NCBI GenBank assembly: GCA_963555995.3
Contig: OY821641.1
Location: 3,264,001 to 3,328,000 of the forward strand
DNA length: 64,000 bases
Source of the DNA: Vicinamibacteria bacterium
GTDB lineage: Bacteria > Acidobacteriota > Vicinamibacteria > Marinacidobacterales > Marinacidobacteraceae
Direction of reading: 5' to 3'
This document shows positions 26,587 to 43,955 of the stretch, piece after piece. Positions within the stretch are counted from its first letter, which is position 1. The number at the start of each line of letters is the position of its first letter. A model generated the notes under the pieces. The model was not told where the DNA came from. It was given only the letters and a program-made list of their open reading frames with translations, and did not search any database. The position numbers and the translations under genes are program-made.

Positions 26587-27840
26587 ATGGCACTCAGCAA
26601 GGAGCTTCGGATGACGATCAGGGCGCTTTCGGAGCGTGGTTGTTCCCGGCGTGAGATCGCGCGGGCGGCGCGGGTGAGCGAGCGTCAGGTTCGCTACGAG
26701 CTGGGTCGCGAGGAGGGTAGGCGCGACGGTCGCGGGAAGGTTGAGCGCGCTTCGAGGCTTGGGGAGGAGATCCGGGAGTGGTGCGCGGACTTTGCGGGGG
26801 GTCAGCCCTTGAACGCGACGGCGCTGCACGAGCATTTGGTGGCGGAGCACGGGTATGTGGGGAGCCTGCGGTCGGTGCAGCGGTATCTGCGTCGTCGGTT
26901 GGGTCCGGGCCGGGTACGGGCGCGGCGTCGGGTGGAGACGCCGCCGGGGGCGCAGGCGCAGGCGGACTGGGCGGAGGCGCCGGGGATGCTGGTTGGAGGC
27001 CGGCGGGGGGTAAGTGCGTTTGCGCTGCGGTTGAGCTTTTCGCGGAAGAGCGCGGTGGTGTGGTCCCCGTTGAAGGACACGCTGTCGTGGTTGTGGGTTC
27101 ACGGGCAGGCGTTTGTGCGTCTGAAGGGGGTGACGGCGACGGTACGGATGGACAACGTGAAGACGGCGATAGTGCGCGGCGCGGGGGTCTGGGGGGAGGT
27201 GAACCGGGCCTATTTGCGGTATGCGGAGGAGGCGCGGTTTCACATCGATCCCTGTCCGCCGCGGTCTCCGGAGGCGAAGGGGAAGGTGGAGCGAGGGATC
27301 CTGGACCTGCGGGGTTGGGGTCCGGGGCCGACGAGCGAGTGGTCGAGCCTGGAGGAGTTGCAGGCGTGGACGGACGCTCGGTTGCTGGAGTGGGAGTCGC
27401 GCCGGACGAGCCCGGCGACGGGGCGCGGGGTGTTGGAGAGTTGGGAGGAGGAGCAGGGGTATTTGGGGGACTGCACGGGGTTGCCGGAGCCGTTCGACCT
27501 GGTGGGGCTGCGGCCGGTGCGGAAGGACTGCACGGTGGCGTTCGACAGCCGGAGCTGGTCGGTGCCGTTCCGTCTGGTGGGGACCCGGGTGGAGGTGCGC
27601 CGGTGCGCGCGCCGGGTGCAGGTGTTGGATCGCGGGGAGGTGGTGGCGGAGCATCCCCGAGAGGGCAACTCCTTGCTTGTGCGCGACTTGTCGCATTACG
27701 AGGGGGCTTCGACGGGTCGGGTGATCGCGCCGGCGCCGCTGGGGCGGATGGGGCGTCGGCTGGAGGAGATCGGGGCGATGGCTCCGGAGGAACGTCCCCT
27801 GGATCTGTATGCGGCGCTGGCGGAGGTAGCGCGATGGTGA
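26587..27840 (+). CDS. istA: IS21 transposase
   Basis: N-terminal HTH, ETPPGAQAQADW, DNVKTA, KGKVER. Confidence 0.95.
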   Translation: MALSKELRMTIRALSERGCSRREIARAARVSERQVRYELGREEGRRDGRGKVERASRLGEEIREWCADFAGGQPLNATALHEHLVAEHGYVGSLRSVQRYLRRRLGPGRVRARRRVETPPGAQAQADWAEAPGMLVGGRRGVSAFALRLSFSRKSAVVWSPLKDTLSWLWVHGQAFVRLKGVTATVRMDNVKTAIVRGAGVWGEVNRAYLRYAEEARFHIDPCPPRSPEAKGKVERGILDLRGWGPGPTSEWSSLEELQAWTDARLLEWESRRTSPATGRGVLESWEEEQGYLGDCTGLPEPFDLVGLRPVRKDCTVAFDSRSWSVPFRLVGTRVEVRRCARRVQVLDRGEVVAEHPREGNSLLVRDLSHYEGASTGRVIAPAPLGRMGRRLEEIGAMAPEERPLDLYAALAEVARW

Positions 27841-28691
27841 GTATGGATGTGGACCTGGACCTGGACCGGACGCGGCGGATCCTGGGAGAGCTCGGGATGC
27901 GGGAGGCATCGGCTCGGTTGTCCGAGTTGCTGACCGAGTGTGCGCGGGAGGAGCTGCCGGCGCATCGCCTGTTGGTTCGGGTCCTGGAGACGGAGAGGGA
28001 GTTCCGCCGGCAGCGGCGGCTGGAGATGGGGCTGCGGATGGCGGGGTTGCCTCTGGGACGGACCCTGGGGAACTTCGACTTCGGCTTCCAGCCGACGCTG
28101 GACCGGACGCGGGTGGAACTGTTGGGCACCTGCGGTTGGATCCGGGAGCGGCAGAACGTTCTGCTGCAGGGCCCGCCGGGGGTGGGGAAGACGCACCTGG
28201 CGGCGGGTCTGGGGATGCGGGCGCTGGAGAACGGGTTCCGGGTGGCGTTCTACCGGCTGGACGAGTTGCTGCGGACCCTGAAGCGGCATGAGGGGTCGAC
28301 GACGCCACGGGGGAACCGGCGGTATCTGTCGGCGTCGCTGTTGATCATCGACGAGATGGGCTACGAAGCCCTGGACGCGAAGGAAGCGAGTCAACTGTTC
28401 CGGTTGATCAACGACCGGCATGAGCGGGGGAGCGTGCTGGTCACGACGAACAAGGCGATCCGGGAATGGCCGGAGGTGCTGGCGGGGGACGCGGTGCTGG
28501 CGAGCGCGATCCTGGACCGGTTCCTGCACCGCTGCGTGGTCCTCGACATCCGTGGCCGCAGCTATCGGCTGCGGGATCTGGAGCAGAGCTTCCGGGAGCG
28601 CCAGGAGACGATCGCTCGATCCTTCCTCCTCCCGGAAGAGGCGGCCTCATCCCCCGCCGCGGCGCCGGCGGGGAAGGAGGGACGTCGGTGA
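27834..28691 (+). CDS. istB: IS21 helper ATPase
   Basis: FDFGFQP, GPPGVGKTHLA, LLIIDEMGY, AILDRFLH, GRSYR. Confidence 0.95.
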   Translation: MVSMDVDLDLDRTRRILGELGMREASARLSELLTECAREELPAHRLLVRVLETEREFRRQRRLEMGLRMAGLPLGRTLGNFDFGFQPTLDRTRVELLGTCGWIRERQNVLLQGPPGVGKTHLAAGLGMRALENGFRVAFYRLDELLRTLKRHEGSTTPRGNRRYLSASLLIIDEMGYEALDAKEASQLFRLINDRHERGSVLVTTNKAIREWPEVLAGDAVLASAILDRFLHRCVVLDIRGRSYRLRDLEQSFRERQETIARSFLLPEEAASSPAAAPAGKEGRR

Positions 28692-29064: not shown

Positions 29065-29340
29065 ATGTCCGATTCTGGACCGCTCACCACCACGATGGCG
29101 CCCGGGGGTCGGGTGCCCCTGCCCGAAACAATTCGCCGGGCGCTCGGCTGGAAGGATGGCGCACGCCTGATCGTGGAGCGAACTTCCGACGGCGTACTCC
29201 TGAAGACCGTCCCGATCTTCGCCCGAACCCGCGTTGAGGATGTGGCTGGCTGCCTCACATGGCGAGGCGCGCCACGATCGCTGGCCGAAATGGAAGCAGG
29301 TGTCCGGGCTGAAGCAGGACGGCACCACACTCGGCGTTGA
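29065..29340 (+). CDS. AbrB/MazE/SpoVT-family DNA-binding protein (orphan antitoxin)
   Basis: TTMAPGGRVPLPETIRRALGWKDGARL...DGVLL. Confidence 0.8.
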   Translation: MSDSGPLTTTMAPGGRVPLPETIRRALGWKDGARLIVERTSDGVLLKTVPIFARTRVEDVAGCLTWRGAPRSLAEMEAGVRAEAGRHHTRR

Positions 29341-29406
29341 TGAGCGCCGCAACTGCGCTGATAGCGTTCCGCCGGTTTCCGCCGAATCAAACCCGTGGGA
29401 TGATCC

Positions 29407-29832
29407 ATGAACACCGCGTTTCGCAGAGCCCCTTCTGCTCCTTGCCTCGTCGCCGCCGGCTCCGCCGCCGCGCGGGACTACGGCACAAGCAGCAACCTTG
29501 AAGTGTCCGCCACCGACGCCGAGCGCGCCGTGATCGAGGCGCTCCACCAGCGCGTTGTCCCCAATAGGGACCCGGCGCACACCGAATTCATCGTGGTCTG
29601 GAAGACCGGCACCTACGCCGAAGCGTGGGGCTTCCGGGATTGGGATTCCGCACTCCGCGAGGTCACCCCCGCGGACCGTTTCGACATCGTCAACCGCGAC
29701 CGCGCCGTGCTCCTCTCGGTAGTGGGCAGCAAGCCGATCGCCTCGGGAATCCGCCTCATCAACAGCTCCATTGACGCGATCCGGCTTGCCTTCTGCTCAT
29801 CGGGGGTTGTTTTTTGTGTCCCTAGGCCATGA
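29407..29832 (+). pseudogene. Probable truncated N-terminal fragment of an M18 aminopeptidase
   Basis: AEAWGF...PADRFDIVNRDRAVLLSVVGSKPIASGIRLINSSIDAIRL recalls the M18 N-terminus up to the HIDSPRL motif, then the ORF ends. Confidence 0.45.
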
Positions 29833-29859
29833 CCACGCGGCTTGCCTTCCTTCGCCAGC

Positions 29860-30822
29860 ATGACGACAAAGCACGAGACCGAATACCGCCGCCCAACGGC
29901 TGTATCCCTGTTCTCGGGATGCGGGGGGTCAGATGCCGGCCTAGTGGCCGCAGGCTTTGATGTAGTCATGGCCAACGACAACTTTGCTTACGCGAAGGAC
30001 TTCTATAGGGCCAATCTTCCAGACACCGACTATCGCCTCTGCGATGTTACCGAAATCGACTCCTTCCCGTGCGTCGATCTGCTTGCCGGTTGCTATCCAT
30101 GCCAAGGGTTCAGCCAAGGCGGCGCCCGCGACCCACGGCGCAAACTCAACTATCTGTATCGGGAGTTCGATCGCGCGCTTCGCAAGATCAAGCCCAAGGC
30201 CTTCATTGTCGAGAACGTTCCTGGGATGAGCAGAAGGGACTTTCGTCACCTATTGAACAATCAGGTGATCCGATTCCGTCTTGCTGGGTACCGGGTTTCC
30301 CATAAGACGCTGGATGCGAAGCGCTACGGTCTCCCACAAGATCGCCAACGGATCTTTATCGTGGGCATACGGTCCGACTTGGGCACGATGTATACATTTC
30401 CGAAGCCTACTCACGGAGTCGGTGCAAAGGACATTCGTACCATTGCCGACGCCATCGGGTCGCTGCCGCACTGGCCGGACGACGAGGTCTGCCAGGATCC
30501 GTTTCACTGGTACTACCTGTCACGAAACAGATACAGACCATGGGATCAACCGAGCAAGACCATCGTGAGCAAAATGCGCCACATGCCGCTACATCCGGCC
30601 AGTCCGAAGCTACTACGAATCCATACGGACAAATGGATCTTTGAAGACGATTCGCCGGCTAGGAGATTCTCATTCCGTGAGGCTGCCCTTCTGCAGGGAT
30701 TCCCTGCCAATGTTAGGTTTCCCGACACAGCACCCATGTCCGCGAAGTACCGAGTGGTCGGCAACGCGGTCCCGCCTCCGCTTTTCCGCGCGGTGGCAGC
30801 ATCACTTCCCGACGTCTGGTAG
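29860..30822 (+). CDS. DNA (cytosine-5) methyltransferase
   Basis: SLFSGCGG (I), GCYPCQGFS (IV), ENV (VI), PQDRQR (VIII), RRFSFREAALLQGFP (IX), GNAVPP (X). Confidence 0.95.
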   Translation: MTTKHETEYRRPTAVSLFSGCGGSDAGLVAAGFDVVMANDNFAYAKDFYRANLPDTDYRLCDVTEIDSFPCVDLLAGCYPCQGFSQGGARDPRRKLNYLYREFDRALRKIKPKAFIVENVPGMSRRDFRHLLNNQVIRFRLAGYRVSHKTLDAKRYGLPQDRQRIFIVGIRSDLGTMYTFPKPTHGVGAKDIRTIADAIGSLPHWPDDEVCQDPFHWYYLSRNRYRPWDQPSKTIVSKMRHMPLHPASPKLLRIHTDKWIFEDDSPARRFSFREAALLQGFPANVRFPDTAPMSAKYRVVGNAVPPPLFRAVAASLPDVW

Positions 30823-30850
30823 AGGGCGGCAAACATCCGAGGACTGACCA

Positions 30851-31981
30851 ATGGCTGACTCCCAACCCGAAGTCGAAAACATGCCCGTGGCCTCCTTGCA
30901 GTTGGACTCGGAGAATCCGCGCTTCGGTGAACACCATGGAGAATCCCACAGTCAGGCCGAAATCCTTGGTCACATCGTTCGGACGTTCGGCGTGGATGAT
31001 CTCCTTAGTTCCTTGGCGGTGAACGGCTATTTCCACGCGGAGCCGCTCCTGTGTCGCCGAAATCCGCTCACCGACGAACTGATCGTTTCGGAGGGCAACC
31101 GGCGTCTGGCCGCGTGCCTCATTCTCATCGGGGACGATCGTGCAGCCAACCAAGAACGTCGCGCTAGCCGATTCCGGGCTATACACAAGAAGCATGGGAG
31201 TCCGACGATCGATCCGGTGCCCATTATCGAAATGGATGCGCGGGCCGACCGCAAGGAAATGTTGTCCTATCTTGGAGTGCGGCATATAGCTTCAGCGCAA
31301 CAGTGGGACTCATTCGCGAAGGCCGTCTGGATTGCTCGTGTCGTTCGCGAGACCGACCTGGATACGAACGCAATCGCCGAGATGATAGGTGACCAGCACC
31401 AAACGGTTACTCGTCTTCTACAGGGTTACTACTTCATCCAACAGCTTATCGGCAAAGGCTTGTTCAGACCGGAAGACAGTGCTAGAAGTGGCCGAGGGAG
31501 CAATATTCGCTATCCTTTTTCTTGGGTTTACACCGTCCTTGGCTACCGCAGTGTCCGCGACTATCTCGCTCTCGATGACGACGCAAAGAACGCGAAACCC
31601 GTCCCGGACGACCGCCTTGATGACGCGGGGTTTCTTGTTACCGCCCTGTTCGGCAATCGCGCGAAGGGTCGGAGTTCGGCGCTGACCGATTCCAGACAAC
31701 TGGGCGATCTAGCGGCGGCAGTGTCCGACTCAGCTAAGGTTGAACTATTGCGTAGCGGCAAGACTCTCAACGAGATCGCAGTCCTGACGTTGCCGTTGGA
31801 CGAGCGCCTCGCCGCGGGACTACTTGACGCTAGGCAGAACCTCGGCGACCTGAACAACCGACTCACGGAGCAGGATGTCCCCCCGCAGATCGCCACTCGT
31901 CACACTGAACAGAGTGAGCGCGTTGAACGACTCGCTGGTGAGGTCCATCGCAAGCTGAAGAACGCTGCAAGTAATGGATAA
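30851..31981 (+). CDS. ParB/Srx-like N-terminal domain protein
   Basis: LQLDSENPRF, VSEGNRRLAA (GxRR-type motif), RH...W, followed by an HTH-like segment (TNAIAEMIG) and a helical C-terminus. Confidence 0.75.
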   Translation: MADSQPEVENMPVASLQLDSENPRFGEHHGESHSQAEILGHIVRTFGVDDLLSSLAVNGYFHAEPLLCRRNPLTDELIVSEGNRRLAACLILIGDDRAANQERRASRFRAIHKKHGSPTIDPVPIIEMDARADRKEMLSYLGVRHIASAQQWDSFAKAVWIARVVRETDLDTNAIAEMIGDQHQTVTRLLQGYYFIQQLIGKGLFRPEDSARSGRGSNIRYPFSWVYTVLGYRSVRDYLALDDDAKNAKPVPDDRLDDAGFLVTALFGNRAKGRSSALTDSRQLGDLAAAVSDSAKVELLRSGKTLNEIAVLTLPLDERLAAGLLDARQNLGDLNNRLTEQDVPPQIATRHTEQSERVERLAGEVHRKLKNAASNG

Positions 31982-32921
31982 CTCCTACTCCAACCGCCAC
32001 ATGGCGCAGCAACTCGGGGGAATCGCTGACCGAGCTGAAATCCACGCCTTGCGTTACGGCTCGGCCATTGTAGATGATGGCTTGGTCAGCGAGAGACTCG
32101 CAGCGGCGGACGACGACCTACGGCCTGAACTCAGTAAGCTTGAGCCGTGGCACGAAATCGATCTGACGTTAGATGGAGGAGCCGGCGGTGCCCGTGACAG
32201 TGTCAATCGGCGTTCCGAGCTTCTTGGAAGGCGATACCCTTTTGTCTTGCCGTCGCTACAGTACAAACCTAGCGACTCACTTGTGTACGAATTCTGTTTG
32301 GCCGTCTGCAATGCCCCCAATCTCACCAAAGGGAAGTACAAACATCTTCCGAGGGTTTTCGAGCGTCTCTCCTGCGTTCTGGCCAAAGCCTACATCGGCC
32401 TCGGTGCCGGTTCACACCACCTGGGCTGGCCTCGTGACAACAACAAACGGACGGGGACGTTTCAAGACGCCATCGCACCGGTCAACCAGGAGACTCAGGA
32501 ATGGTTCTGGGCGCCGGAGCCTGAGCTTCCGCAGAGTCCGACCGTCAAGGAGGTTAAGGATGACGGACTAGACCTACTCGCGTGGAAGGCGATCGACGAA
32601 CGTGTTGGCAGTCTCTTTTTCCTTGGTCACTGCGCGTGCGGTCAAAACTGGCAGACGAAATTCCACGATGCGGACCCACGCAAGCTGTCGAAGTGGTTCA
32701 ATCCCATGACGCTTGTCAGCCCCCCTGTAAGGCTCTTCTTTACTCCTTACCACGTAGCCGATGCTGTGATTCGCGAAGCGAGTAGGACCGCCGGTGTCGT
32801 TCTTGACCGAATTCGCCTGACGCTACTTGCGGAGCAGTCAACCGAACTGCGTAAGCACAAGGCCCTGCGTCGTCGCCTCCGAGAACTCGTTGATTTGGTG
32901 ACCGACGGGAGGACTGGATGA
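31974..32921 (+). CDS. Hypothetical protein, putative PD-(D/E)xK-like nuclease
   Basis: 8-nt overlap with the upstream gene; RVFE...KDDGLDLLAWK...FLGHCACGQNWQTK...VLDRIRL pattern resembles Mrr-like restriction folds. Confidence 0.6.
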   Translation: MDNSYSNRHMAQQLGGIADRAEIHALRYGSAIVDDGLVSERLAAADDDLRPELSKLEPWHEIDLTLDGGAGGARDSVNRRSELLGRRYPFVLPSLQYKPSDSLVYEFCLAVCNAPNLTKGKYKHLPRVFERLSCVLAKAYIGLGAGSHHLGWPRDNNKRTGTFQDAIAPVNQETQEWFWAPEPELPQSPTVKEVKDDGLDLLAWKAIDERVGSLFFLGHCACGQNWQTKFHDADPRKLSKWFNPMTLVSPPVRLFFTPYHVADAVIREASRTAGVVLDRIRLTLLAEQSTELRKHKALRRRLRELVDLVTDGRTG

Positions 32922-33155
32922 CCACATCCAATACCCGTATCTGCGGCATCGTATGGAACTGGAGATAGTCTTCAAGCCCCGGCTGCGATCAGCCGCGCAT
33001 GGTCATCCAGGCGGAACGCCAGATTTGCCGACGGCATCTAGGCCGACGAATCTGAGACCGCGCCGCCACCGTTAGTTGGTTGACCGTGACAATCGGTCGT
33101 TGATTAGCCTTGGGGGCGTGGCCATGAGACGGGGTCGGGTAGCGTGCCCTCCGGC

Positions 33156-34646
33156 ATGAGCACTCGTGACCTGAAGGCGGAACTCTGGAACTGCGCCCAG
33201 GTCCTCCGTGGCAGCGCCGTGGCCCGCACGGACTGGAAGGCGTACATCCTGCCGCTCCTGTTCTTCAAGCGCATCAGCGACGTGTGGGACGAGGAAACCA
33301 CCGCCGCCATCGCGGCCTACGGCGAAGCGGACGCCGCCGCCTTCCCCGAGGAACACCGCTTCGTGGTGCCGGAGGGCTGCCACTGGCAGGATGTCCGCCA
33401 GACGCCAAAGGGAGTGGGCGCGGCGCTCGCGCGCGCCATGCGGGAGATCGAGCGGGCCAATCCCGACACCCTCTCCCGGGTGTTCGGCGCTGCCGACTGG
33501 GGGAACCGCGCGGTTCTCGGAGACGCGATCCTCAAGGACCTCGTGGAGGGGCTGTCGGCCGTGCCGCTCGGCAACTCGGCAGTCGGATCGGATGTGCTCG
33601 GCGACGCCTACGAGTACCTGATCGGCAAGTTCGCCGATGTCACCCGCCGGAAGAAAGCCGGCGAGTTCTACACGCCGCGCAGCGTGGTGCGGATGCTGGT
33701 GGAACTGCTGGACCCCGGCCCGGGGGAGACGATCTACGACCCGGCCTGCGGCACCGGCGGGATGTTGCTGGGGGCGATCGAACACGTGGAGCGGGCGGGA
33801 GGCGACCCCCGCACGTTCTTCGGCCGGATCTTCGGGCAGGAGAAGAACCTGACCACCTCGTCCATCGCGCGCATGAACCTGATGCTCCACGGGGTCGAGG
33901 ACTTCCGCATCGAGCAGGCGGACACCCTGCGCCGGCCGGCCTTCACCGACGCGGTCGGCGGCGTCACCGCTTTCGATTGCGTCATCGCGAACCCGCCGTT
34001 CTCCCTCCAGGATTGGGGACGCGAGGTCTGGGAGGCGGACCCCTGGGGACGGGCCGGCTTCGGCCTGCCGCCGACGAAGAGCGGGGACTACGCCTGGGTT
34101 TCGCACATGGTCGCCTCCATGAAGGAACCCGACGGGCGCATGGCGGTCGTGCTGCCGCAAGGGGCGCTCTTCCGCCGCGGGGCGGAGGGACGAATCCGGC
34201 AGGCCCTGCTGGAGCGCGATCTGGTGGAGGCGGTGATCGGACTGGCGCCCAACGTGTTCTACGGCACCGGTCTCGCCCCGGCGGTGGTGACACTCCGCCG
34301 GCGGAAGACCCGCGGACGCCGCCGGAAGGTGCTGCTGGTGGATGCTTCCCGGCTCTTCCGCAAGGGCCGGGCGCAGAGTTTCCTCGACCCGGAGCACGCC
34401 TCCCGTATCGTCGGCTGGGTTCGCGGATTTCGGGACGTGACCGATTGCGCGAAAGTCGTTCGGCTGGACGAGATCGAGAGCAAGGATTGGACGCTCAACA
34501 TCTCCCGTTATGTGGCGCCTCCGCTCGGCGAAGAGCCCCCGCCCCTGCCCCAGGCGGTGGCCGCCTTCAAGGAAGCGGTGGGGGAGGCGAAGGCCGCCGA
34601 GGACCGACTGCGGACGGTTCTCACCCGGGACGGCTGGCTCGACTGA
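33156..34646 (+). CDS. hsdM: Type I R-M methyltransferase M1 (NPPF)
   Basis: PLLFFKRISD, GEFYTP, YDPACGTGGML, ANPPF. Confidence 0.95.
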   Translation: MSTRDLKAELWNCAQVLRGSAVARTDWKAYILPLLFFKRISDVWDEETTAAIAAYGEADAAAFPEEHRFVVPEGCHWQDVRQTPKGVGAALARAMREIERANPDTLSRVFGAADWGNRAVLGDAILKDLVEGLSAVPLGNSAVGSDVLGDAYEYLIGKFADVTRRKKAGEFYTPRSVVRMLVELLDPGPGETIYDPACGTGGMLLGAIEHVERAGGDPRTFFGRIFGQEKNLTTSSIARMNLMLHGVEDFRIEQADTLRRPAFTDAVGGVTAFDCVIANPPFSLQDWGREVWEADPWGRAGFGLPPTKSGDYAWVSHMVASMKEPDGRMAVVLPQGALFRRGAEGRIRQALLERDLVEAVIGLAPNVFYGTGLAPAVVTLRRRKTRGRRRKVLLVDASRLFRKGRAQSFLDPEHASRIVGWVRGFRDVTDCAKVVRLDEIESKDWTLNISRYVAPPLGEEPPPLPQAVAAFKEAVGEAKAAEDRLRTVLTRDGWLD

Positions 34647-34726
34647 GAGCCCCCGACGGGACGACCGCTCGGGGCGGCCAACACCCGGAACCCGATGCTA
34701 CGATCCGGCGCGCTTTGGAGAGCCGA

Positions 34727-36295
34727 GTGACGCGGGCGGCCCGGAGTTCCCGGTCGCGGAGAAGCAAACCCGGACCGGTCGGCGGGACGGCGAAGCGGCT
34801 CGGTCAGAGGGAACTGGCGGCGCACCTCTGGGGCGCGGCCACACTGCTTCGGGGGTTGGTGGACGCCGCCGACTACAAGCAATACGTCTTCCCGCTCCTC
34901 TTCTTCAAGCGGCTCTCGGACGTATGGGACGAGGAGCACGCGGCAGCGCTCCGGGAGACCGGCGACCATGGCTATGCCCGGGACATCGCCAATGACCGTT
35001 TCGCCATCCCGGACCGCGCGCACTGGTCGGACGTCCGCGCCGCGTCCCGCGATGTCGGGCTGGCCCTTCGGCGAGCGTTCCGGGAGATCGAGAAGGCGAA
35101 CCCGGACCGGCTCTCCGGAGTCTTCGGCGCGGCGCCGTGGACCGACAAGGCGCTGCTTCCGGACGCAACCCTGAAGAACCTGATCGAGCACTTCTCCCGG
35201 CATCGCCTCGACCTGACGGGGGCGCCCGAGGACGAGCTGGGCAATGCCTACGAGTACCTCATCGGCCAGTTCGCCGACGACAGCGGCCACACCGCGCAGG
35301 AGTTCTATACGAACCGGACCCTCGTCCACCTGATGACCCGGATGCTGGCTCCGAAGCCCCGGGAGCGGATCTACGACCCGACCGCGGGCACCGGCGGAAT
35401 GCTGATCTCGGCGCTCGCGGAAGTGAAACGCCGGGGTGGGGAGGCGCGGACGCTCGGCCTCTGCGGGCAGGAACTCATCGGCTCGACGGCGGCCATTGCC
35501 CGCATGAACCTCGTGCTGCACGGGGTCGAGGACTTCCGCATCGAGGTGGGCAACGCGCTGAGCGCCCCGGCCTTCGCCGAGGGCGGTCGCCTGATGACCT
35601 TCGACATCGTGTTGGCCAACCCCCCGTACTCGATCAGGAACTGGGACCGGGATGCGTGGCGGAGTGACCCGTGGGGCCGCAATTTCCTCGGCGTTCCGCC
35701 GCAGGGCCGGGCCGACTACGCCTTCTTCCAGCACATCCTGAAGAGCCTCAACCCGAAGACCGGGCGTTGCGCCATCCTGTTCCCGCACGGGATCCTGTTC
35801 CGCAAGGAGGAAGCCCAGATGCGACGGGCGCTGGTGGAGAGCGACCTTCTCGAATGCGTACTGGGGCTCGGGCCGAACCTCTTCTACAACTCGCCGATGG
35901 AAGCGTGCGTCGTCGTCTGTCGCACACGGAAGCCGCCCGCCCGACGCGGCAAGGTGCTGTTCATCAACGCAGTGCGCGAGGTAGCGCGCGAGGGCGGCCA
36001 GAGTTTCCTGCAGCCGCCGCACCAGCGCCGGATTCTGAAGGCGTACCGCGCGTTTGCGGCGGAGCCGGGCTTCGCCGCCGTCGTGACGGCAGCGGAGATT
36101 CTGGAAAGCGGAGGAACCCTGTCCATCGCCCGCCATGTCGGCCAGCCCGCCCCTCTGGCGGGAGAATTGGGCCAACGGGACCTCAAGACGGCCTGGACCG
36201 AGTTCGAGGCGGGGGGTACGAAATTCTGGCGACGGATGGACGCCGCTGTCCGATCGCTCGAACCGATGGCAGCAGAGCCGCATGATGCGGCGTAG
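34727..36295 (+). CDS. hsdM: Type I R-M methyltransferase M2 (NPPY)
   Basis: PLLFFKRLSD, QEFYTNR, YDPTAGTGGML, ANPPY. Confidence 0.93.
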   Translation: MTRAARSSRSRRSKPGPVGGTAKRLGQRELAAHLWGAATLLRGLVDAADYKQYVFPLLFFKRLSDVWDEEHAAALRETGDHGYARDIANDRFAIPDRAHWSDVRAASRDVGLALRRAFREIEKANPDRLSGVFGAAPWTDKALLPDATLKNLIEHFSRHRLDLTGAPEDELGNAYEYLIGQFADDSGHTAQEFYTNRTLVHLMTRMLAPKPRERIYDPTAGTGGMLISALAEVKRRGGEARTLGLCGQELIGSTAAIARMNLVLHGVEDFRIEVGNALSAPAFAEGGRLMTFDIVLANPPYSIRNWDRDAWRSDPWGRNFLGVPPQGRADYAFFQHILKSLNPKTGRCAILFPHGILFRKEEAQMRRALVESDLLECVLGLGPNLFYNSPMEACVVVCRTRKPPARRGKVLFINAVREVAREGGQSFLQPPHQRRILKAYRAFAAEPGFAAVVTAAEILESGGTLSIARHVGQPAPLAGELGQRDLKTAWTEFEAGGTKFWRRMDAAVRSLEPMAAEPHDAA

Positions 36296-37454
36296 ACGGC
36301 GGAACCCCGTTGCGTTCGGGGAAATTGCGGACAATGTGACCGAGCGCGTGGACCGTCCCGCCGAATCGGGCGTTGACCGGTATGTGGGTCTCGAACATCT
36401 GGAACCGGGCTCGCTGAAGATCCAGCGATGGGGATCTCCCACCGATGTTTTCGGGACGAAGTTGCGGTTTCGCGAGGGCGACATCGTGTTCGGACGCCGC
36501 CGGGCCTATCAGCGGAAGCTGGCGGTCGCACATTTCGACGGCATCTGCTCGGCTCATGCACTGGTCCTGCGCGCTCGGCCGCGAGTGGTTCTGCCCGAAT
36601 TCCTGCCGTTCTTCATGCAGAGCGACGGATTCATGGAACGGGCGCAACGAATCTCCGTCGGCTCCCTGTCTCCGACCATCAACTGGAAGACGCTGGAACA
36701 GGAGGAGTTCGTCTTGCCCCCGCGCTCCGAGCAGCGCCGTATCGCGTCTGCCCTGAACGGGTTAGCGACAGCCGCGGATTCGGTGAAGAAACTGGAAGCT
36801 GCTGCGGATGCCCTGCTCTTCTCGATCTATCGGGTCGTGTTCGAGGCTCCGGAGAACCCGACCCGGCCACTACGAGAAATCGCGGAAGTGCGCATGGGAC
36901 GGCAGCGCTCCCCACGGCACGCCCACGGCGACCACATGGTGCCTTACGTCAGGGCCGCGAACATCAAGCAGGACACTCTCGATCTGTCCAGCGTCTTGAA
37001 GATGAACTTCGATCCGGGTGAGCAAAAGAGGTACGGACTCCGAGCCGGGGATATCCTGGTCACGGAAGGGTGCGGCAGCCTCGCTGGAATCGGCGCGAAC
37101 GCCGTGTGGAACGATGAGCTGACCGGAAAGGTGTGCTTTCAGAATCACGTGATCCGGCTCCGAGCAATGGAGAATCTGGTTTCGCAGCGCCTTTTGCGGC
37201 ATTGGGCGCGATACGCCTATCTGTCGGGGAAATTCGCCAAGACAGCCCAAGGTACAACGATCCTCTCCATCGGCCAGAAGCGCTGCGAGCAGATGACGGT
37301 CCGGTTGCCCCCTACGGGAATACCGAGGAAGTCAGCCGAACGGCGAATGAACGAGGTCGAAGAGGCCAAGCGTCGCGCCGAGACGAGGGCGGAGTCGTTG
37401 CAACGGATGCGTGCGGCGCTGCTCGAACAAGAAATCGGAAGCGCGACCGCGTAG
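36282..37454 (+). CDS. hsdS: Type I R-M specificity subunit
   Basis: Two TRDs; GDIVFGRRRAY, LPPRSEQRRIA, GDILV. Confidence 0.92.
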   Translation: MMRRRRRNPVAFGEIADNVTERVDRPAESGVDRYVGLEHLEPGSLKIQRWGSPTDVFGTKLRFREGDIVFGRRRAYQRKLAVAHFDGICSAHALVLRARPRVVLPEFLPFFMQSDGFMERAQRISVGSLSPTINWKTLEQEEFVLPPRSEQRRIASALNGLATAADSVKKLEAAADALLFSIYRVVFEAPENPTRPLREIAEVRMGRQRSPRHAHGDHMVPYVRAANIKQDTLDLSSVLKMNFDPGEQKRYGLRAGDILVTEGCGSLAGIGANAVWNDELTGKVCFQNHVIRLRAMENLVSQRLLRHWARYAYLSGKFAKTAQGTTILSIGQKRCEQMTVRLPPTGIPRKSAERRMNEVEEAKRRAETRAESLQRMRAALLEQEIGSATA

Positions 37455-37493
37455 CAATCCGCTGCTCGCGGCCTCGCCATTCGGGTACGCACA

Positions 37494-38687
37494 GTGACCG
37501 ACGCCAAGCCGCCAACTGCCGACACACCAACACCGGATCCGGGTTACGCCATCTTGCGAGCCCGCTTGAGCGACAGGGATCCGAACAGCGAAGACGTGCA
37601 GCCACGCGATTTGGCGAAGCACCTCAAGGAGCGATTCTGGATCGAGCGGTGGCTTGCGCTGGGCCGATGGAAGAACTCCGAGTTGATCGGGGCTCGAGGA
37701 CACACGGAATTGCGTCTCGCCGACTTGGGCAGACGACTCGACGAGCCGGGGGACGCATTCTTCGATTTTGTCCAGACCTGCCGGAAGGGCGTGGTGAGCG
37801 TTCGAACCTGGGTCGAAGTGACGGAGGCGGTGGGGCCGGACGACGCCCGACGCATCACCCAGGAGTTGCGAGCCCTTGGGCAACGGCCACGGGGATCAAG
37901 AGAAGAAGCACGGTCGCTCTGCGACTTGAAGGACCCGCACGTTCCGGACCGACTGGCACAGGCCCGCATGGCGGATCGCGTAGTCGAAGCCGTAGTCAAG
38001 AAGGCCCGGAAGGGACGTGACGGCGGCTCGTACGAGGCGCTTGTTCGCGACTATGGCCGTGGTGCGCTGGTCGTAGGCGTGCCGTTGTGGTTTCCAGTGC
38101 TGGCGTCAGACGCTACCGACCCGCGCAGGTTCGAGACCGATTTCAGTCCCCGGCTCGGTATTGGGCTGAGAGCGATACGTCGCACAGTTCTGAGTACCCG
38201 TTGGTGTCCATTCGATTCGGTGGTCGTTCTCTGGTGTCCGACACGGGTTGCGATACGCGAGTGGGCCGATACCGCCGCGGATCCCGAATCGTTCCTTCCG
38301 AGAACCTACGAGTGGCTGGAGGACTTGGGGCTGACCGAGACCACGTCCGCCATGAACCTTCACTGGCGTTGGCACCGCTACCCGTCGCTCGACGCGGCGG
38401 TCGCGGCCCAGCAGAATCGCGTGCGCTGGCCGGGATTGCCCCGACCGTTCGGAACCAAGGCGCAATTCAAGATCTGCACCTCCGGGTCTGCCCGATGGAA
38501 AGACGGCTGGTACCGGCTGCTTGGCGTTGCTGTGCTGTTCACCGCGTTCCTGCGGATGGGCGGCGGGCGCGACCTCCGGCGCTGGGTCCAGGCGCTCACG
38601 CGGCCAGCGTGGCACTGGAAACGCTGGAGAATCCGCCGACGAGTCATGCGCTCCTACCGGGAGTCGGTCCGCAGCATCGAGGACTGA
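37494..38687 (+). CDS. Hypothetical protein inside the type I R-M operon
   Basis: 397-aa ORF co-oriented between hsdS and hsdR; Trp-rich; one C-terminal hydrophobic segment. Confidence 0.6.
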   Translation: MTDAKPPTADTPTPDPGYAILRARLSDRDPNSEDVQPRDLAKHLKERFWIERWLALGRWKNSELIGARGHTELRLADLGRRLDEPGDAFFDFVQTCRKGVVSVRTWVEVTEAVGPDDARRITQELRALGQRPRGSREEARSLCDLKDPHVPDRLAQARMADRVVEAVVKKARKGRDGGSYEALVRDYGRGALVVGVPLWFPVLASDATDPRRFETDFSPRLGIGLRAIRRTVLSTRWCPFDSVVVLWCPTRVAIREWADTAADPESFLPRTYEWLEDLGLTETTSAMNLHWRWHRYPSLDAAVAAQQNRVRWPGLPRPFGTKAQFKICTSGSARWKDGWYRLLGVAVLFTAFLRMGGGRDLRRWVQALTRPAWHWKRWRIRRRVMRSYRESVRSIED

Positions 38688-38823
38688 TCGGCTCGAACGA
38701 CCAGACGCCTGTAGAGAGTCCCCGGATGGGGTGTGCGACCCAGCGGTAAACCGATCCGGGGGCCGCGCGAGTGACGGCGGTCCCTGCGGCGCCTCCGTCG
38801 GGCGAGTCGTCTATCATGGCCGC

Positions 38824-39051
38824 ATGCAGTCCGAATGGGACTCGGTCGTCCAGAGCGATCCCGAGATCTCGGGGGGAACGCCCGTCTTTCGCGGCACCAG
38901 AGTGCCGGTTCGGAGCCTGTTCGACTACCTGGAGGGCGGCGAGACACTCGACTGGTTCCTCGATCAGTTCCCCTCCGTTTCCCGCGCCCAAGCGCTCGCT
39001 GCGCTCGAAGTGGCCCGGGATTCCGTCCTGATCCGTGCGCGTTCTGCTTGA
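38824..39051 (+). CDS. DUF433 antitoxin (VapB45-like)
   Basis: DPEISGGTPVFRGTRVPV...FLDQFPSV. Confidence 0.9.
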   Translation: MQSEWDSVVQSDPEISGGTPVFRGTRVPVRSLFDYLEGGETLDWFLDQFPSVSRAQALAALEVARDSVLIRARSA

Positions 39052-39370
39052 CGAGAATCTGCCTCGCGGCCTCGCCAGCGAACTGACCGGACACGAGGTC
39101 ACTACGGTCCAGGCCGCCGGTTGGGCGGGGACGAAGAACGGCGAACTGCTCCGGCGCGCTGACACCCGTTTCGATGTCCTGATGACCATGGATCGCAACC
39201 TTCGATACCAGCAGAACCTGAGCGCGCTGCGATTGAGCATCCTGATCGTCCGTGCTCGTTCGAACCGCATGGTGCACCTGAGGCCACTCGTGGGCCGCAT
39301 CCTGGGGGCATTGGAGGAGCTGCGGCCCGGGCAGTACCGCGAGATCGGGACACCATCCGGCGCGGACTGA
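39035..39370 (+). CDS. DUF5615 PIN-like toxin (VapC45-like)
   Basis: MRVLLDENLP, GWAGTKNGELL, TMDRNLRYQQN. Confidence 0.9.
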   Translation: MRVLLDENLPRGLASELTGHEVTTVQAAGWAGTKNGELLRRADTRFDVLMTMDRNLRYQQNLSALRLSILIVRARSNRMVHLRPLVGRILGALEELRPGQYREIGTPSGAD

Positions 39371-39395
39371 AGGAGCGGCGCATCCGCGACCGCGC

Positions 39396-42371
39396 ATGAC
39401 TTTCAACGAAGCCAACACCGTCGAGGCGTTCCTCCGCGACCTCCTCTGCGGGGGAATCACCCACCACACCGCGGTCGGCCCGGGCCGGGCGCGCCGAGCC
39501 GGGAGGCTCTCCGGGCTCGGTTGGCACTACCTCGCGGCGCGAGACCTTCCTCGGTCTTCGCACCAGGTCCTCGTCGAACCCCACCTGCGCGAAGCCCTGA
39601 TCCGCCTGAACCCGGAGATCGCGGCGCAGCCCGATCGCGCCGACGAAGTCCTGTACCGGCTGCGGGCCATCCTGATGACGGTGGGGGCTGAGGGGCTGGT
39701 CGAGGCCAACAAGGAGTTCGCGGCGTGGCTGACCGGCGAACGATCCATGCCCTTCGGGCCGGAGGGGGAGCACGTGACTGTCCGGTTGCTCGACTTCGAG
39801 GACGTGGACCAGAACCAGTGGGTCGTCACCCAGCAGTACATCGCCCGGCGCGAGCAAGACACGACCAAACGTGCCGATCTGGTGCTGCTCGTCAATGGAA
39901 TTCCGCTGATCGTCATCGAGGCCAAGACCCCGGTGCGGCTCAGCGAGAGCTGGCTGGACGGAGCCATCCAGATCGAGGTGGACTACCAGAAGAACGTCCC
40001 CGAGCTGTTCGTGCCCAACTTGTCGTCCATCGCCACCGAAGGCAAGGAGTTTCGGTACGGAGGTGTCGGCCTGCCGGCGGGCGACTGGGGTCCCTGGCGG
40101 TCGCCCGAGCCGGGGCAGACGGAGGCTCCGGCACTCAAGCGCCTTGAAGGTCTCGTGGCTTCAATGCTCCACCCGGAGACCGTTCTCGATCTCGTTGCCA
40201 ACTTCACCGCCTTCGTGGCCGACCCACAGAAGGGGCGCATGAAACTCATCGCCCGCCACCAGCAGGTCGAAGCGACGAACCGGATCGTCGAGAGGGTCGT
40301 TGCCGGCCGGCCCAGGCAGGGCCTCATCTGGCACTTCCAGGGCTCCGGGAAGACGGAACTCATGCTCTTCGCCGCCCGCAAACTGCGGATGCACCCGGAG
40401 TTGCAGAACCCCGCAGTGCTTGTGGTGGTGGATCGGGTGGATCTGGACACCCAGCACTCCGCCGCCTTCCGGGCGGCGGAGTTGCCCAACATGGTCCGGG
40501 CGGAGAGGACGGAGGACTTGGTTCGCCTGCTGGCCCAGGACACGCGCAAGGTCATCCTCACGACCATCTTCAAGTTCGGGGAGGCGGAAGGGGTCCTCAA
40601 CGACAGCGACAACCTGATCGTGCTGGTGGACGAGGCGCACCGGACCCAGGAAGGCGACCTCGGCCGCCGGATGCGCCGGGCGCTGCCCAACGCCTTCCTG
40701 TTCGGCCTCACCGGCACGCCGATCAACCGGGCCGACAAGAACACCTTCCTCGCTTTCGGGGCCGAGGAAGACGCAAACCGCTACCTCAGCCGCTACGGTT
40801 TCGAGGAGTCGGTTGCGGACGGCGCGACCCTGCCGCTCCATTTCGAGCCTCGCCTGCTCGAACTCCACGTGGATCAGGACGCGATGGACGCCGAGTTCGG
40901 GCAACTGACCGGCAGCTTGACGGACACCGAACGCGAGCGGCTGGCCAAAACTGCCGCGCGGACGGCCGTGCTGCTCAAGACCCCCGAGCGGGTCGAAGCG
41001 ATCTGCGCCGACATCGCGGACCACTATCGCGGCAGGGTCGAGCCTCACGGTTTCGGCGCCCAGGTAGTGACCTACGACCGGGAGAGTTGCGTTCTCTACA
41101 AACGGGCGCTCGACCGGCACCTGCCTCCAGAAGCGTCCGCCGTCGTCATGACCGTTGAAGGCGGCGAGCAGGAGTTCGCGGCCTATCGCCGGGACCGCGA
41201 GGAAGAGGCGCGGCTACTCGACCGCTTCCGGGACCCTGGTGACCCGCTGAAGATCCTGATCGTGACCTCCAAGCTGCTGACCGGGTTCAACGCGCCGATC
41301 CTGCAGACGATGTATCTCGACAAGCCGATCCGCGACATCGCGCTGGTGCAGGCCATCTGTCGGGCGAATCGCCCCTACGGCGACGAAAAGAAGCACGCGC
41401 TGATCGTGGACTACCTCGGGGTGTTCGACGACGCGGCGCGCACACTGCGGTTCGACGAGAAGGGCATGGAAAGGCTCATCACCAACATCGCGGAACTGGT
41501 TGCTGAACTCCCGGAGGCGTTGCGGAAGTGTCTCGCCTACTTCAGCGGCGTGGACCGCTCCGTCTTTGGGTATGAGGGGTTGATCGCGGCGCAGGAGTGT
41601 CTGCCGGACAACGCGACCCGCGACCGCTTCGCCGCCGACTACGTGCGGCTGGCCCGGCTGTGGGAAATCGCCTCCCCGCGCCCTCCCACGGACACCTACG
41701 AGGCCGACTATCGCTGGTTGACGCAGGTGTACCGCTCACTGCAGCCCTCCACCGGCACCGGGCGGCTCCTGTGGCGTAGCTTCGGCGCCAAGACCATCCA
41801 GCTCATCCAGCGGAACGTCCATGTGGACGCGATTCAGGACGACCTCGACGAAGTCGTTCTCGACGCGGAGACGCTGGAAGCGGTGCTGGCGAATCCCGAC
41901 GCGGAACGGAAGGCCAGGGAAGTCGAGATCAGGCTCGGCTCACGGCTGCGGCGGCTCGCCCACGATCCGAAGTTCCGCCCGCTCGGCGAACGGCTTGAGG
42001 CGCTCAAGGAGAAACACCTGCAGGGAGCGCTCGGGAGCATCGCGTTCCTGAAGTCGCTGCTCGAGCTGGCCCGCGATGTCCTCGAAGCGGAGCGCACGGC
42101 GGCGGTGCCCCATGCGGAGGATCCCGGCAAGGCAGCGCTCACGGCTCTCTTCGAAGAAGTGCGCAACGAACGAACCCCCATCATCGTCGAGCGCGTCGTG
42201 AGCGACATTGACGAGATCGTGCGCCAGGTCCGTTTCGACGGTTGGCAGAGCACCCACGCCGGAGAGCGCATCGTCAAGAAGGAGCTTCGGAGGACCCTGC
42301 TGAAGTACCGCCTCCACAAGGAAAAGGACCTCTTCGACCGCGCCTACGGCTACATCACGCAGTACTACTGA
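39396..42371 (+). CDS. hsdR: Type I restriction subunit R
   Basis: ADLVLLVNGIPLIVIEAK, QGSGKT, DEAHR, TGTP, QAICRANR. Confidence 0.95.
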   Translation: MTFNEANTVEAFLRDLLCGGITHHTAVGPGRARRAGRLSGLGWHYLAARDLPRSSHQVLVEPHLREALIRLNPEIAAQPDRADEVLYRLRAILMTVGAEGLVEANKEFAAWLTGERSMPFGPEGEHVTVRLLDFEDVDQNQWVVTQQYIARREQDTTKRADLVLLVNGIPLIVIEAKTPVRLSESWLDGAIQIEVDYQKNVPELFVPNLSSIATEGKEFRYGGVGLPAGDWGPWRSPEPGQTEAPALKRLEGLVASMLHPETVLDLVANFTAFVADPQKGRMKLIARHQQVEATNRIVERVVAGRPRQGLIWHFQGSGKTELMLFAARKLRMHPELQNPAVLVVVDRVDLDTQHSAAFRAAELPNMVRAERTEDLVRLLAQDTRKVILTTIFKFGEAEGVLNDSDNLIVLVDEAHRTQEGDLGRRMRRALPNAFLFGLTGTPINRADKNTFLAFGAEEDANRYLSRYGFEESVADGATLPLHFEPRLLELHVDQDAMDAEFGQLTGSLTDTERERLAKTAARTAVLLKTPERVEAICADIADHYRGRVEPHGFGAQVVTYDRESCVLYKRALDRHLPPEASAVVMTVEGGEQEFAAYRRDREEEARLLDRFRDPGDPLKILIVTSKLLTGFNAPILQTMYLDKPIRDIALVQAICRANRPYGDEKKHALIVDYLGVFDDAARTLRFDEKGMERLITNIAELVAELPEALRKCLAYFSGVDRSVFGYEGLIAAQECLPDNATRDRFAADYVRLARLWEIASPRPPTDTYEADYRWLTQVYRSLQPSTGTGRLLWRSFGAKTIQLIQRNVHVDAIQDDLDEVVLDAETLEAVLANPDAERKAREVEIRLGSRLRRLAHDPKFRPLGERLEALKEKHLQGALGSIAFLKSLLELARDVLEAERTAAVPHAEDPGKAALTALFEEVRNERTPIIVERVVSDIDEIVRQVRFDGWQSTHAGERIVKKELRRTLLKYRLHKEKDLFDRAYGYITQYY

Positions 42372-42387: not shown

Positions 42388-42430
42388 TTGACATGATTTT
42401 CCCTAATTTCTATAGTTACGAGGATGTCAA
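42388..42430 (+). promoter_or_regulatory. Sigma70 promoter with an overlapping inverted repeat
   Basis: TTGACA (42388-93), 17 bp, TATAGT (42411-16); TTGACAT/ATGTCAA inverted pair at 42388 and 42424. Confidence 0.75.
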
Positions 42431-43122
42431 GTCACAAGACGCAGTCGGGGATGCCCTTGCCGGAGTCCCTGATCAGCGTTGGCCTCGACGCTGACGACCT
42501 TCGGGCGCTCCCGGAAACGCTTCGTGAGCAATGTGGCGTGCTCTGGGAAGGGCCTTCGGGGGACTGGACCCTGGTGGGCACCCGCGACACGGAACTGGCG
42601 CAGCTCCTCCGGAGGGTCCTTACCCGTCTGGAACCGATGGCGGCCATGCACCGCCGGAGACTCAGCGAGCGCAACATTGATCTCTTGTTGGAGAGCATTC
42701 TCGCCGACGCTCCGCGAGACGACGTTCACGCCGTGCTCGAGTTGGACAACGCCAAGCTGCGGGCCGACTACGTGGAGGAGACACGGTTGCTCACCGGGGC
42801 CGAGGTTCGCGCCGCGTCGGGCCTCAGCCCGAAAAACGCCAGCGAACCGGCCTCGCGCTGGAAGCGCGAGGGGCGAATCTTCGCGGTTCGCCACGGCGGG
42901 CGAGACCTCTACCCGGCGTTCCAGTTCGCCGATGGCCAACCGAGGTCCGTCATCAAGAGCATCCTTGCCGTGATGCCATCGTCGGCGACACCCTGGCAGA
43001 TTGCGCTGTGGTTCGCCTCCGGCAACGGCTGGCTGGACGGCGCCGAACCTCAAGAATGCCTCGATGCCGCGGAGCAGCTCGTTGAAGCGGCCCGCGACTT
43101 CGCCAATCCGGTCGAGGGCTAG
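42424..43122 (+). CDS. MbcA/Xre-like antitoxin of a RES toxin
   Basis: RWKREGRIFAV...YPAFQF...WQIALWF...GWLDG..P; directly upstream of the RES gene. Confidence 0.8.
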   Translation: MSSHKTQSGMPLPESLISVGLDADDLRALPETLREQCGVLWEGPSGDWTLVGTRDTELAQLLRRVLTRLEPMAAMHRRRLSERNIDLLLESILADAPRDDVHAVLELDNAKLRADYVEETRLLTGAEVRAASGLSPKNASEPASRWKREGRIFAVRHGGRDLYPAFQFADGQPRSVIKSILAVMPSSATPWQIALWFASGNGWLDGAEPQECLDAAEQLVEAARDFANPVEG

Positions 43123-43301
43123 CAGCCTGTGGTGCAACTCACGCGGCTTTCGACGCCCGCTGAATCCCCGCTGAAACGCTCGCTTGCAGCTCGCTCATCG
43201 TTGCGCTTCGGTCGAAATACACCCGGTATTCCTCCCTTGCGCGCCTTGTCAGCGAGGCCCCGCGGGCGTCTCGGTCCTCACGCCAGTTCCACCACAGGCT
43301 G
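43122..43301. mobile_element. MITE (~180 bp)
   Basis: TIRs CAGCCTGTGGTGCAACT and AGTTCCACCACAGGCTG (1 mismatch); CTA duplicated on both flanks. Confidence 0.85.
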
Positions 43302-43319
43302 CTAACCGAGGCGCGGATC

Positions 43320-43955
43320 GTGACGATCCCGAAGCCTTCCGGACACCTGGCGCCCCCCAATCCCAGGATTCTGGAGTCCGGGACCGTGCTGCACCGGATC
43401 CATGATCGGAGCCGGTCGCCCAACGCCTTCAATCCGTGTCGGGGGAGGCCAACGCGCTTCGCGCCCATCGCGGACGCCAAAGGACGGTGCGTACCTTCCC
43501 TCTATGCGGGAAGCACCTTTGATTCCGCCGCCTACGAAACGCTGTTCCGCGGCATCCCCGTACACACGCAACGGAAGACCGCTCCTCTCTCCGCGGTGAT
43601 CAGCCGCGCTCACGGCACCTTCCAGACGCTGCGGGACCTCACGCTCGCTTCGCTGCGAGCTCCCGATCTCGCGAGATGGGGGGTGTCGCGGCACGCGCTG
43701 ATCGCGTCTTCGCCCCAGCACTACCAAGAGACCGCCGCTTGGGCGAAGGCGATCCATGACCAGTGTCCGCGCATCGAGGGCCTCGTATGGACCTCCAGCC
43801 AGTGCGATCCAGACGACGCCTATCTCTTCTTCGGGGACCGCGTTCGCCCCGAGGACCTGCGAATCGTCTCCGTCCGGGACGGCTCGAGTGATCCTGCGTT
43901 CCTCGCCGATGTGCGGCTGGCCGGACAGCGCGCCGGCATCACCATCGTGATTTGA
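43320..43955 (+). CDS. RES-domain toxin (NAD+ phosphorylase-like)
   Basis: LHRIH, FNP, TRFAP, SLYAG, YETLFR, YQETAAWA, GLVWTS, FGDRV. Confidence 0.88.
   Translation: MTIPKPSGHLAPPNPRILESGTVLHRIHDRSRSPNAFNPCRGRPTRFAPIADAKGRCVPSLYAGSTFDSAAYETLFRGIPVHTQRKTAPLSAVISRAHGTFQTLRDLTLASLRAPDLARWGVSRHALIASSPQHYQETAAWAKAIHDQCPRIEGLVWTSSQCDPDDAYLFFGDRVRPEDLRIVSVRDGSSDPAFLADVRLAGQRAGITIVI

Follow-up and report, generated by a model that had tools for sequence, protein, structure and literature searches.

A mobile three-gene cassette of a C5-cytosine methylase, a ParB-fold protein and a predicted Mrr-like nuclease as a candidate restriction-modification system

A cassette of three genes was analyzed in a stretch of 64,000 nucleotides (the window) from Vicinamibacteria bacterium (GCA_963555995.3, contig OY821641.1, 3,264,001-3,328,000, forward strand); positions are given within the window. 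The genes encode a C5-cytosine DNA methyltransferase (gene 1), a protein with a predicted ParB/Srx fold (gene 2), and a protein with a predicted Mrr-like PD-(D/E)XK nuclease domain (gene 3). This cassette is real, conserved, and mobile; it has been catalogued once, without a name or a mechanism, and none of the profile libraries tested recognized it as a system. On balance, it is probably a restriction-modification (R-M) system, whose restriction arm consists of a nucleoside triphosphate (NTP) switch and a nuclease. Sequence and computation provide the gene identities, the predicted folds, the catalytic residues, the reciprocal linkage, the co-variation of genes 2 and 3, the exchange of the methylase, and the mobile, patchy distribution.

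Through gene 2, 79 genome loci were found. Gene 3 lies directly after gene 2 in 73 of them, and in 4 of the 6 loci without gene 3 the sequence ends within about 200 bp of gene 2. A methylase of the same clade as gene 1 adjoins the pair in 64/79 loci; another C5 methylase is the sole one there in 4/79, and no methylase is adjacent in 11/79, of which 6 end within 700 bp. The orientation of the 64 clade methylases is free: 46 are downstream and convergent, 11 downstream in tandem, 5 upstream in tandem as in the window, and 2 divergent. The order in the window, methylase first and in tandem, is thus a minority arrangement. Free orientation of the methylase gene relative to the restriction gene is typical of type II R-M systems.

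The linkage is reciprocal. Among the best 80 of 371 confirmed methylase loci, which are from metagenomes and not de-replicated, both partner genes are present in 67 and one in 5 (gene 2 and/or gene 3 in 72/80), and in the 8 loci without them the downstream sequence is no longer than 1.6 kb. The counts from both sides bear out a three-gene synteny across phyla, by which the first-pass annotation, made from the letters of the window alone, had proposed to judge the system. A Vsr-like gene, expected beside an active 5-methylcytosine (5mC) methylase, lies near 26/79 loci, and Pfam Vsr was confirmed on one. The Mantel correlation of pairwise identities at 58 loci, which as related loci are not independent, is r = 0.81 for gene 2-gene 3, 0.45 for gene 1-gene 2, and 0.31 for gene 1-gene 3.

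Profile searches for distant pairs produced 3 hits in 400 genomes, 6 in 401, and 14 in 301, centres included. Among 18 regions with distant pairs, a methylase is adjacent in 15. The partners are D12/N6-methyladenine (m6A) methylases in 6 (one weak, and one through an adjacent pair similar to the validated system PD-lambda-5), methylases of the N4/N6 class in 4, other C5 methylases in 4, and the window's clade in 1; 3 have none. Methylase classes interleave within supported clades of the 42-row gene 2 tree, in which two long branches are flagged. Because the partner types interleave in this way, genes 2 and 3 appear to be the constant unit, and the methylase the exchangeable part. Near close-clade pairs, only L055 looks like a true C5 swap. 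Two further "other C5" cases were rejected as swaps: the methylase of L051 belongs to a NotI-type R-M system, and that of L020 to a separate ParB/SNF2 operon.

The pairs also occur in composite arrangements. An unannotated gut phage scaffold (L130, 4953-9792) carries two different gene 2-gene 3 pairs face to face. At L131 (275-4725), a PD-lambda-5-like pair, made up of a 454-aa ParB protein and a D12 methylase, comes immediately downstream of a gene 2-gene 3 pair, and these two pairs perhaps share one methylase. On a Neorhizobium plasmid (L081, 1-8027), a distant pair ends an operon of C5 methylase, DUF262, Z1, and PD-(D/E)XK genes. In a prophage-like region of Vibrio (L082, 6754-11801), a pair with a D12 methylase is located between integrase-like and repressor-like genes.

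The AlphaFold2 model of gene 3 (predicted local distance difference test, pLDDT, 88) includes a helical, weakly winged-helix-like N-terminal region and a nuclease domain at about aa 100-300. The best matches by VIA-align are AF1548 and MspJI (Z 6.9, root-mean-square deviation 3.5 and 4.0 over 113 and 142 aa), and nearly all top rows are PD-(D/E)XK nucleases. Foldseek gives MspJI a probability of 0.95, but an E-value of 0.013. Gene 3 is therefore predicted to have an Mrr-like PD-(D/E)XK fold, with moderate Z-scores; the nuclease call is supported despite these scores because the match list is consistent and the residue pattern agrees. Both structural comparisons support the divergent nuclease that the first-pass annotation had suspected. 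No match to gene 3 was found in Pfam, PADLOC, and NCBIfam, either singly or with the 27 members of its alignment, and none of the REase_II profiles matches it. In the ESM Atlas, the top 23 matches are unnamed clusters, and HaeII- and BsoBI-type restriction endonucleases appear only at 0.80-0.82, as leads only. The family is large, with 2,810 clusters at 50% identity (E <= 0.001).

Conserved residues were counted in 98 aligned homologues of gene 3 (71 close and 27 distant), with three probable duplicates and partial open reading frames (ORFs) excluded. D200 is conserved in 98/98, Q219 in 97/98, and E130 in 90/98. The motifs KDDGLD (with D196 and D200) and GHCACGQNW read in the first pass are present, but HCA is not the motif of the family, which has Q-C-A; His at position 219 is confined to the window protein and five of its closest relatives (6/27 rows of alignment A1). 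Lysines K221 and K229 are mutually exclusive, with Q-C-K without K229 in 5/98 and K229 without K221 in 93/98, as counted in an alignment fitted to a profile containing K229. The five Q-C-K homologues make one supported clade on the tree, and the relocation of the lysine thus appears to be a single event. K229 is likely to be the catalytic lysine of gene 3, moved from the QxK position; because this relocation is compensatory, the active site seems to be maintained. A linked endonuclease with intact catalytic residues is expected of a type II R-M system, and gene 3 keeps E130, D200, and K229 within its predicted fold.

The model of gene 2 (pLDDT 88) consists of a predicted N-terminal nucleotide-binding domain, helix-turn-helix-like helices at about aa 172-201, and long C-terminal helices. 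Its best Foldseek matches are ParB, KorB, and Noc (E-value 2e-5, probability 1.0), with low template modeling scores of 0.2-0.3. The two motifs pointed out earlier, LDSENPRF (given as LDxENPRF) and EGNRR, are both present, and EGNRR is kept in 45/45 homologues. The Foldseek matches and this conservation agree with the ParB-like nature first proposed for gene 2, and the model fits a ParB/Srx fold with a Box II arginine motif. Gene 2 has no Pfam match, and the PDB sequence search with genes 2 and 3 gave no significant match. The PD-Lambda-5_A profile matches gene 2 over aa 9-175 only. The PADLOC profile PDC-M38A, a single protein of ~715 aa that joins a ParB-like domain to a C-terminal one, was rejected as a gene 2-gene 3 fusion: gene 2 matches its N-terminal part only, and its C-terminal half resembles RecF-like ATPases, not gene 3. 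NTP binding by gene 2 is not to be assumed, because a survey of ParB-fold proteins (bioRxiv 10.1101/2025.10.10.680097) found such binding in only 11 of the 28 that were purified.

Gene 1 encodes an intact C5 methylase with a full-length match to PF00145 (DNA_methylase, 3e-60) and with the PC and ENV motifs. The GCYPCQ sequence noted as an atypical motif IV is indeed there, but it is not atypical: the catalytic PC is kept, and GCYPCQ is the norm in 60/63 linked methylases, therefore a mark of the clade and not an oddity. The target-recognition segment xHW[YH]Y[LM]SRNR is nearly invariant (55/63 linked methylases), and for this reason the clade likely shares one common target. The closest PDB sequence is M.HaeIII (142 bits over aa 14-315, the SRNR segment included), compared with 74 bits over aa 15-184 only for HhaI. 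The target is probably a short GGCC-like site, since the SRNR element of HaeIII and the following Arg are kept, though flanking residues differ. The idea of an overlap with Dcm, by which phages grown on K-12 would be pre-protected, is weakened by the full-length match to HaeIII; against the most distant bacterial C5 methylases of the PDB list, among which we take Dcm to be, gene 1 gives only about 30 bits. In the host genome, GGCC occurs at 0.84 of the expected frequency, which is no informative signal of motif avoidance; this is expected if the cassette was recently acquired.

A tblastn search of phages located the trio in Wphi, a P2-like prophage of Escherichia coli W, in the gpA-portal interval, which is the P2 defense hotspot, and also in a Pseudomonas P2-like phage. 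The Wphi trio is orf98-orf96-mth. Identity is 63% between its methylase and gene 1, 27% between orf98 and gene 2, and 22% over 181 aa between orf96 and gene 3 (47 bits with the gene 3 profile). The cassette is present in 104/5,426 E. coli genomes. Among 25 listed E. coli copies, 4 (H34-H37) are interrupted by insertion sequence (IS) elements.

The cassette had first been taken as undescribed, which holds only in part. The family appears in Table S5B of Rousset et al. 2022 (PMC9122126), unnamed, as an "RM-like system"; it is system #2 of the P2 hotspot and the second commonest there, with 1,136/18,150 hotspot loci, a figure in which C5, D12, and HEPN-labelled variants are pooled, and its Wphi copy was tested in that study. 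It remains true that the cassette matches no named system in PADLOC or in the literature searched. Beyond the Rousset supplements, no description of the trio was found in that literature, which leaves subscription journals and bioRxiv supplements outside its scope; a more recent account is therefore possible. Term searches aimed at DefensePredictor, the BREX review, and Iyer 2008 returned nothing on the trio.

Under R-M, the methylase would mark host DNA with 5mC. The ParB-fold protein, possibly binding an NTP, would act as a nucleotide-dependent DNA-binding switch that loads or slides on unmethylated DNA; it would form a complex with the product of gene 3 and license the Mrr-like nuclease to cut DNA without the mark, and the outcome would be restriction of phages or plasmids. 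This reading is favored because genes 2 and 3 are linked, a clade methylase stands beside them in free orientation, the linkage holds from the methylase side as well, Vsr is nearby, and genes 2 and 3 co-vary by the Mantel test. It is favored also because methylases stand beside distant pairs, the lysine is relocated, the Wphi copy occupies the P2 hotspot, and the validated PD-lambda-5 combines a related ParB domain with a methylase. A wider proposal is more tentative: the cassette may represent a large, unnamed class of R-M in which unmethylated DNA is read by a ParB-type nucleotide clamp, in place of a helicase or AAA+ motor, and an Mrr-like nuclease is thereby switched on. The arm of switch and nuclease would be combined anew with 5mC, m6A, and N4-methylcytosine (m4C) methylases, and PD-lambda-5 would be a HEPN-armed sister of the class.

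Several observations weigh against R-M. The plasmid pFR107, listed as "RM-like" and carrying the Wphi trio from ATCC 9637 with native promoters and cloned into MG1655, is in the non-validated list of Table S2B, that is, tested and absent from the validated list (PMC9122126). The eight challenge phages were lambda, T4, P1, 186, CLB_P2, LF82_P8, AL505_P2, and T7 (PMC9122126), and a GGCC-type R-M system should have been expected to restrict lambda or P1. Isolate SIAC10 of Rousset et al. carries the same cassette; among four lysogens tested in E. coli C, protection was reported for AC1 only (PMC9122126), from which we infer an implicit negative for the SIAC10 lysogen. E. coli W was described as "restriction minus" on the basis of its gene content (Archer et al. 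2011, PMC3032704). On the side of the sequences, all fold Z-scores of gene 3 are below 8, and in the window copy of the nuclease His replaces Gln219, which is otherwise conserved. No methylase lies within about 4-5 kb of 3/18 distant pairs or within the flanks examined of two close-clade loci (L040 and L041), and a genome-wide search of 10 genomes with pairs lacking the clade methylase nearby found it absent in 9. At L048, a methylase truncated at its 5' end, possibly an assembly artefact, stands beside apparently intact genes 2 and 3. Switching of the methylase class would also be hard for a restriction enzyme strictly coupled to sequence.

The MG1655 host is a caveat on the pFR107 test: an active purine-5mC methylase would be counterselected by its McrBC, and an active clone may have been lost in this way. 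For PD-lambda-5, Vassallo et al. worked in a host deleted for mrr (PMC9519451). Work of the 1960s on Wphi lysogens reportedly saw breakdown of lambda DNA and unmodified escaping phage, and Kerszman et al. 1967 reportedly dealt with the restriction of lambda in strain W. The unmapped determinant of this "restriction in E. coli W" might be the Wphi copy. Wphi also carries, in the second P2 variable slot, the cargo gene orf44 (L232, 14617-15516), which encodes 299 aa without a Pfam match and is an alternative candidate for the historical restriction.

The non-validated test, the orphan pairs, and the methylase swaps favor the main rival, abortive infection by a system that guards the methylase, which is rather unlikely but has appreciable weight. 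The ParB-fold protein would monitor the methylase, how the host DNA is methylated, or the NTP pool; a disturbance by phage, such as an anti-restriction protein or depletion of S-adenosylmethionine, would turn the nuclease on, destroying DNA and killing or stalling the cell. Such a system could stay silent against a small phage panel, and methylases of different chemistry on the gene 2 tree and pairs without any methylase agree with it. So does the related PD-lambda-5, which fuses the same ParB domain to HEPN and has been called a compacted "RM+Abi" system (PMC9519451). The breakdown of lambda DNA reportedly seen in Wphi lysogens would also agree. The nearly invariant target-recognition segment, the frequent linkage of Vsr, and a methylase clade almost never seen without genes 2 and 3 fit self-marking instead, and orf44 could account for the old Wphi observations.

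Two further explanations are improbable. Genes 2 and 3 might attack modified DNA, as in type IV-like restriction of the GmrSD/SspE kind, and the methylase would travel with them to shield against other restriction systems. Among the closest folds of gene 3 are those of MspJI and AspBHI, which depend on modification, GmrSD contains ParB-superfamily domains, and orphan pairs would be natural there. The similarity to MspJI, however, is limited to the catalytic domain (model aa 100-305), and an SRA-like reader was not seen; one would not expect near-obligate reciprocal linkage to a single methylase clade, and T4 was in the negative panel of the pFR107 test (PMC9122126). There is a similarly slight chance that the cassette serves selfish addiction or the maintenance of a prophage or island, through post-segregational killing by the nuclease and with little anti-phage value. 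Its patchy, mobile occurrence (1/15 same-genus genomes with a homologue, distant only), the IS21 and toxin-antitoxin genes flanking it in the window, and the lack of validated protection in the published lists (PMC9122126) suit this explanation. The concentration of the cassette in a slot known for defense genes speaks against it, and R-M systems are themselves addictive, so that addiction is compatible with the favored R-M reading.

The ORFs of the window (Table 1) confirm the tight packing of a co-oriented trio, with a gap of 28 bp between genes 1 and 2 and an overlap of 8 bp between genes 2 and 3; an alternative in-frame TTG at 29842 would extend gene 1 to 326 aa. The low GC content remarked on in the first pass is also found: 0.569, 0.575, and 0.573 for genes 1, 2, and 3, against 0.70 for the genome. 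GC at third codon positions is 0.63-0.66 in the trio and 0.87-0.91 in hsdM, hsdR, and one host gene, and just 7/1,265 3-kb windows of the main contig have GC as low as the trio. The genome carries a single copy of the cassette. Any match to gene 2 was found in 4/40 relatives, all 4 distant.

Table 1. Features of the three-gene cassette, in positions of the window
Feature	Position	Strand	Description
Gene 1	29860..30822	+	ATG start, 320 aa; C5-cytosine DNA methyltransferase, HaeIII-like target-recognition region, GCYPCQ / FHWYY[LM]SRNR clade
Motif IV GCYPCQ	30088..30105	+	aa 77-82; catalytic Pro-Cys intact; read from sequence
Gene 2	30851..31981	+	376 aa; ParB/Srx-fold protein (predicted)
EGNRR	31091..31105	+	aa 81-85; ParB Box II-like arginine motif; in 45/45 close and distant homologues checked
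Gene 3	31974..32921	+	315 aa; helical N-terminal region and Mrr-like PD-(D/E)XK nuclease domain (predicted)
Predicted catalytic centre	32559..32660	+	D196-x-G-x-D200, (Q/H)219-C-A, relocated K229; E130 upstream

The trio belongs to a small island, in which a type I R-M locus and toxin-antitoxin genes come downstream of it. Upstream lies an IS21-family element (26587-28691) that encodes an IstA-like transposase and an IstB ATPase, shows a strong GC skew locally (+0.34), and marks the left side of this island. An AbrB/MazE-type antitoxin gene and a 141-aa ORF without a Pfam match follow at 29065-29832, where a clear toxin partner was not found. The type I R-M locus noticed in the first pass begins 222 bp after the trio; its tie to the trio is incidental, because hsd genes are near only a few of the 79 gene 2 loci. 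It spans 33144-42371 and includes hsdM as a tandem pair, hsdS, a DUF5615/PIN gene, and hsdR, as well as a 397-aa ORF (37494-38687) without library matches. A pair of an Xre/MbcA-like antitoxin and a RES-domain toxin is at 42424-43955.

The family is the second most frequent listed cargo of the best-studied E. coli prophage defense hotspot and is found in many phyla, and its gene 3 is matched by none of PADLOC, Pfam, and NCBIfam. The literature searched holds no mechanism for gene 3. Gating of the nuclease by the ParB-fold subunit would, if it is real, give R-M a new nucleotide-switch design and the ParB fold a role in defense.

Among known systems, Druantia type II resembles the cassette in its methylase, the best PADLOC profile of gene 1 being DruM2 (PDLC00027, 359 bits). 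It was rejected as an identity: no recurrent DruE/F/G-like neighbors occur in the 79 and 80 loci, and genes 2 and 3 match no Druantia profile. GmrSD and SspE likewise couple a ParB-superfamily domain to a nuclease, but they are defined by DUF262 and DUF1524/HNH, and genes 2 and 3 are without Pfam matches. Mrr and MspJI share the D...QxK catalytic fold with gene 3, in which the QxK lysine is relocated in most members. No SRA domain was detected in genes 2 and 3, and the cassette has a linked cognate methylase, unlike Mrr/MspJI, GmrSD, and SspE.

PD-lambda-5, listed as "ParB/HEPN, methyltransferase" and validated (Vassallo et al. 2022, PMC9519451), is similar in its related ParB N-terminal domain and its methylase. 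Its two genes are a ParB-HEPN fusion and an adenine methylase, whereas the cassette has three, with a separate PD-(D/E)XK nuclease and a C5 methylase. The cassette was thus rejected as a PD-lambda-5 system: gene 2 scores 45 bits over the N-terminal part only, against 608 bits at full length for L087, a true member, and gene 1 is not the D12 methylase of PD-Lambda-5_B, which accompanies some distant pairs only (316 bits at L082). Type II R-M systems with HaeIII/BspRI-like C5 methylases are alike in the methylase, intact in gene 1, in the free orientation of methylase and restriction genes, in Vsr, and in a fast-diverging restriction side. In the cassette, this side is two proteins, one with a ParB fold, and matches no REase_II profile. 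The "RM-like system" #2 of Rousset et al., including the Wphi trio, contains the same three protein families adjacent to each other (ParB-like, hypothetical, and methylase), and the cassette belongs to it. Their paper gives it neither a name nor a mechanism, the table row assigns no ParB or nuclease, and the clone is non-validated (PMC9122126). Compared with the Wphi trio, the window copy is chromosomal, belongs to another clade of genes 2 and 3, and has its methylase upstream in tandem.

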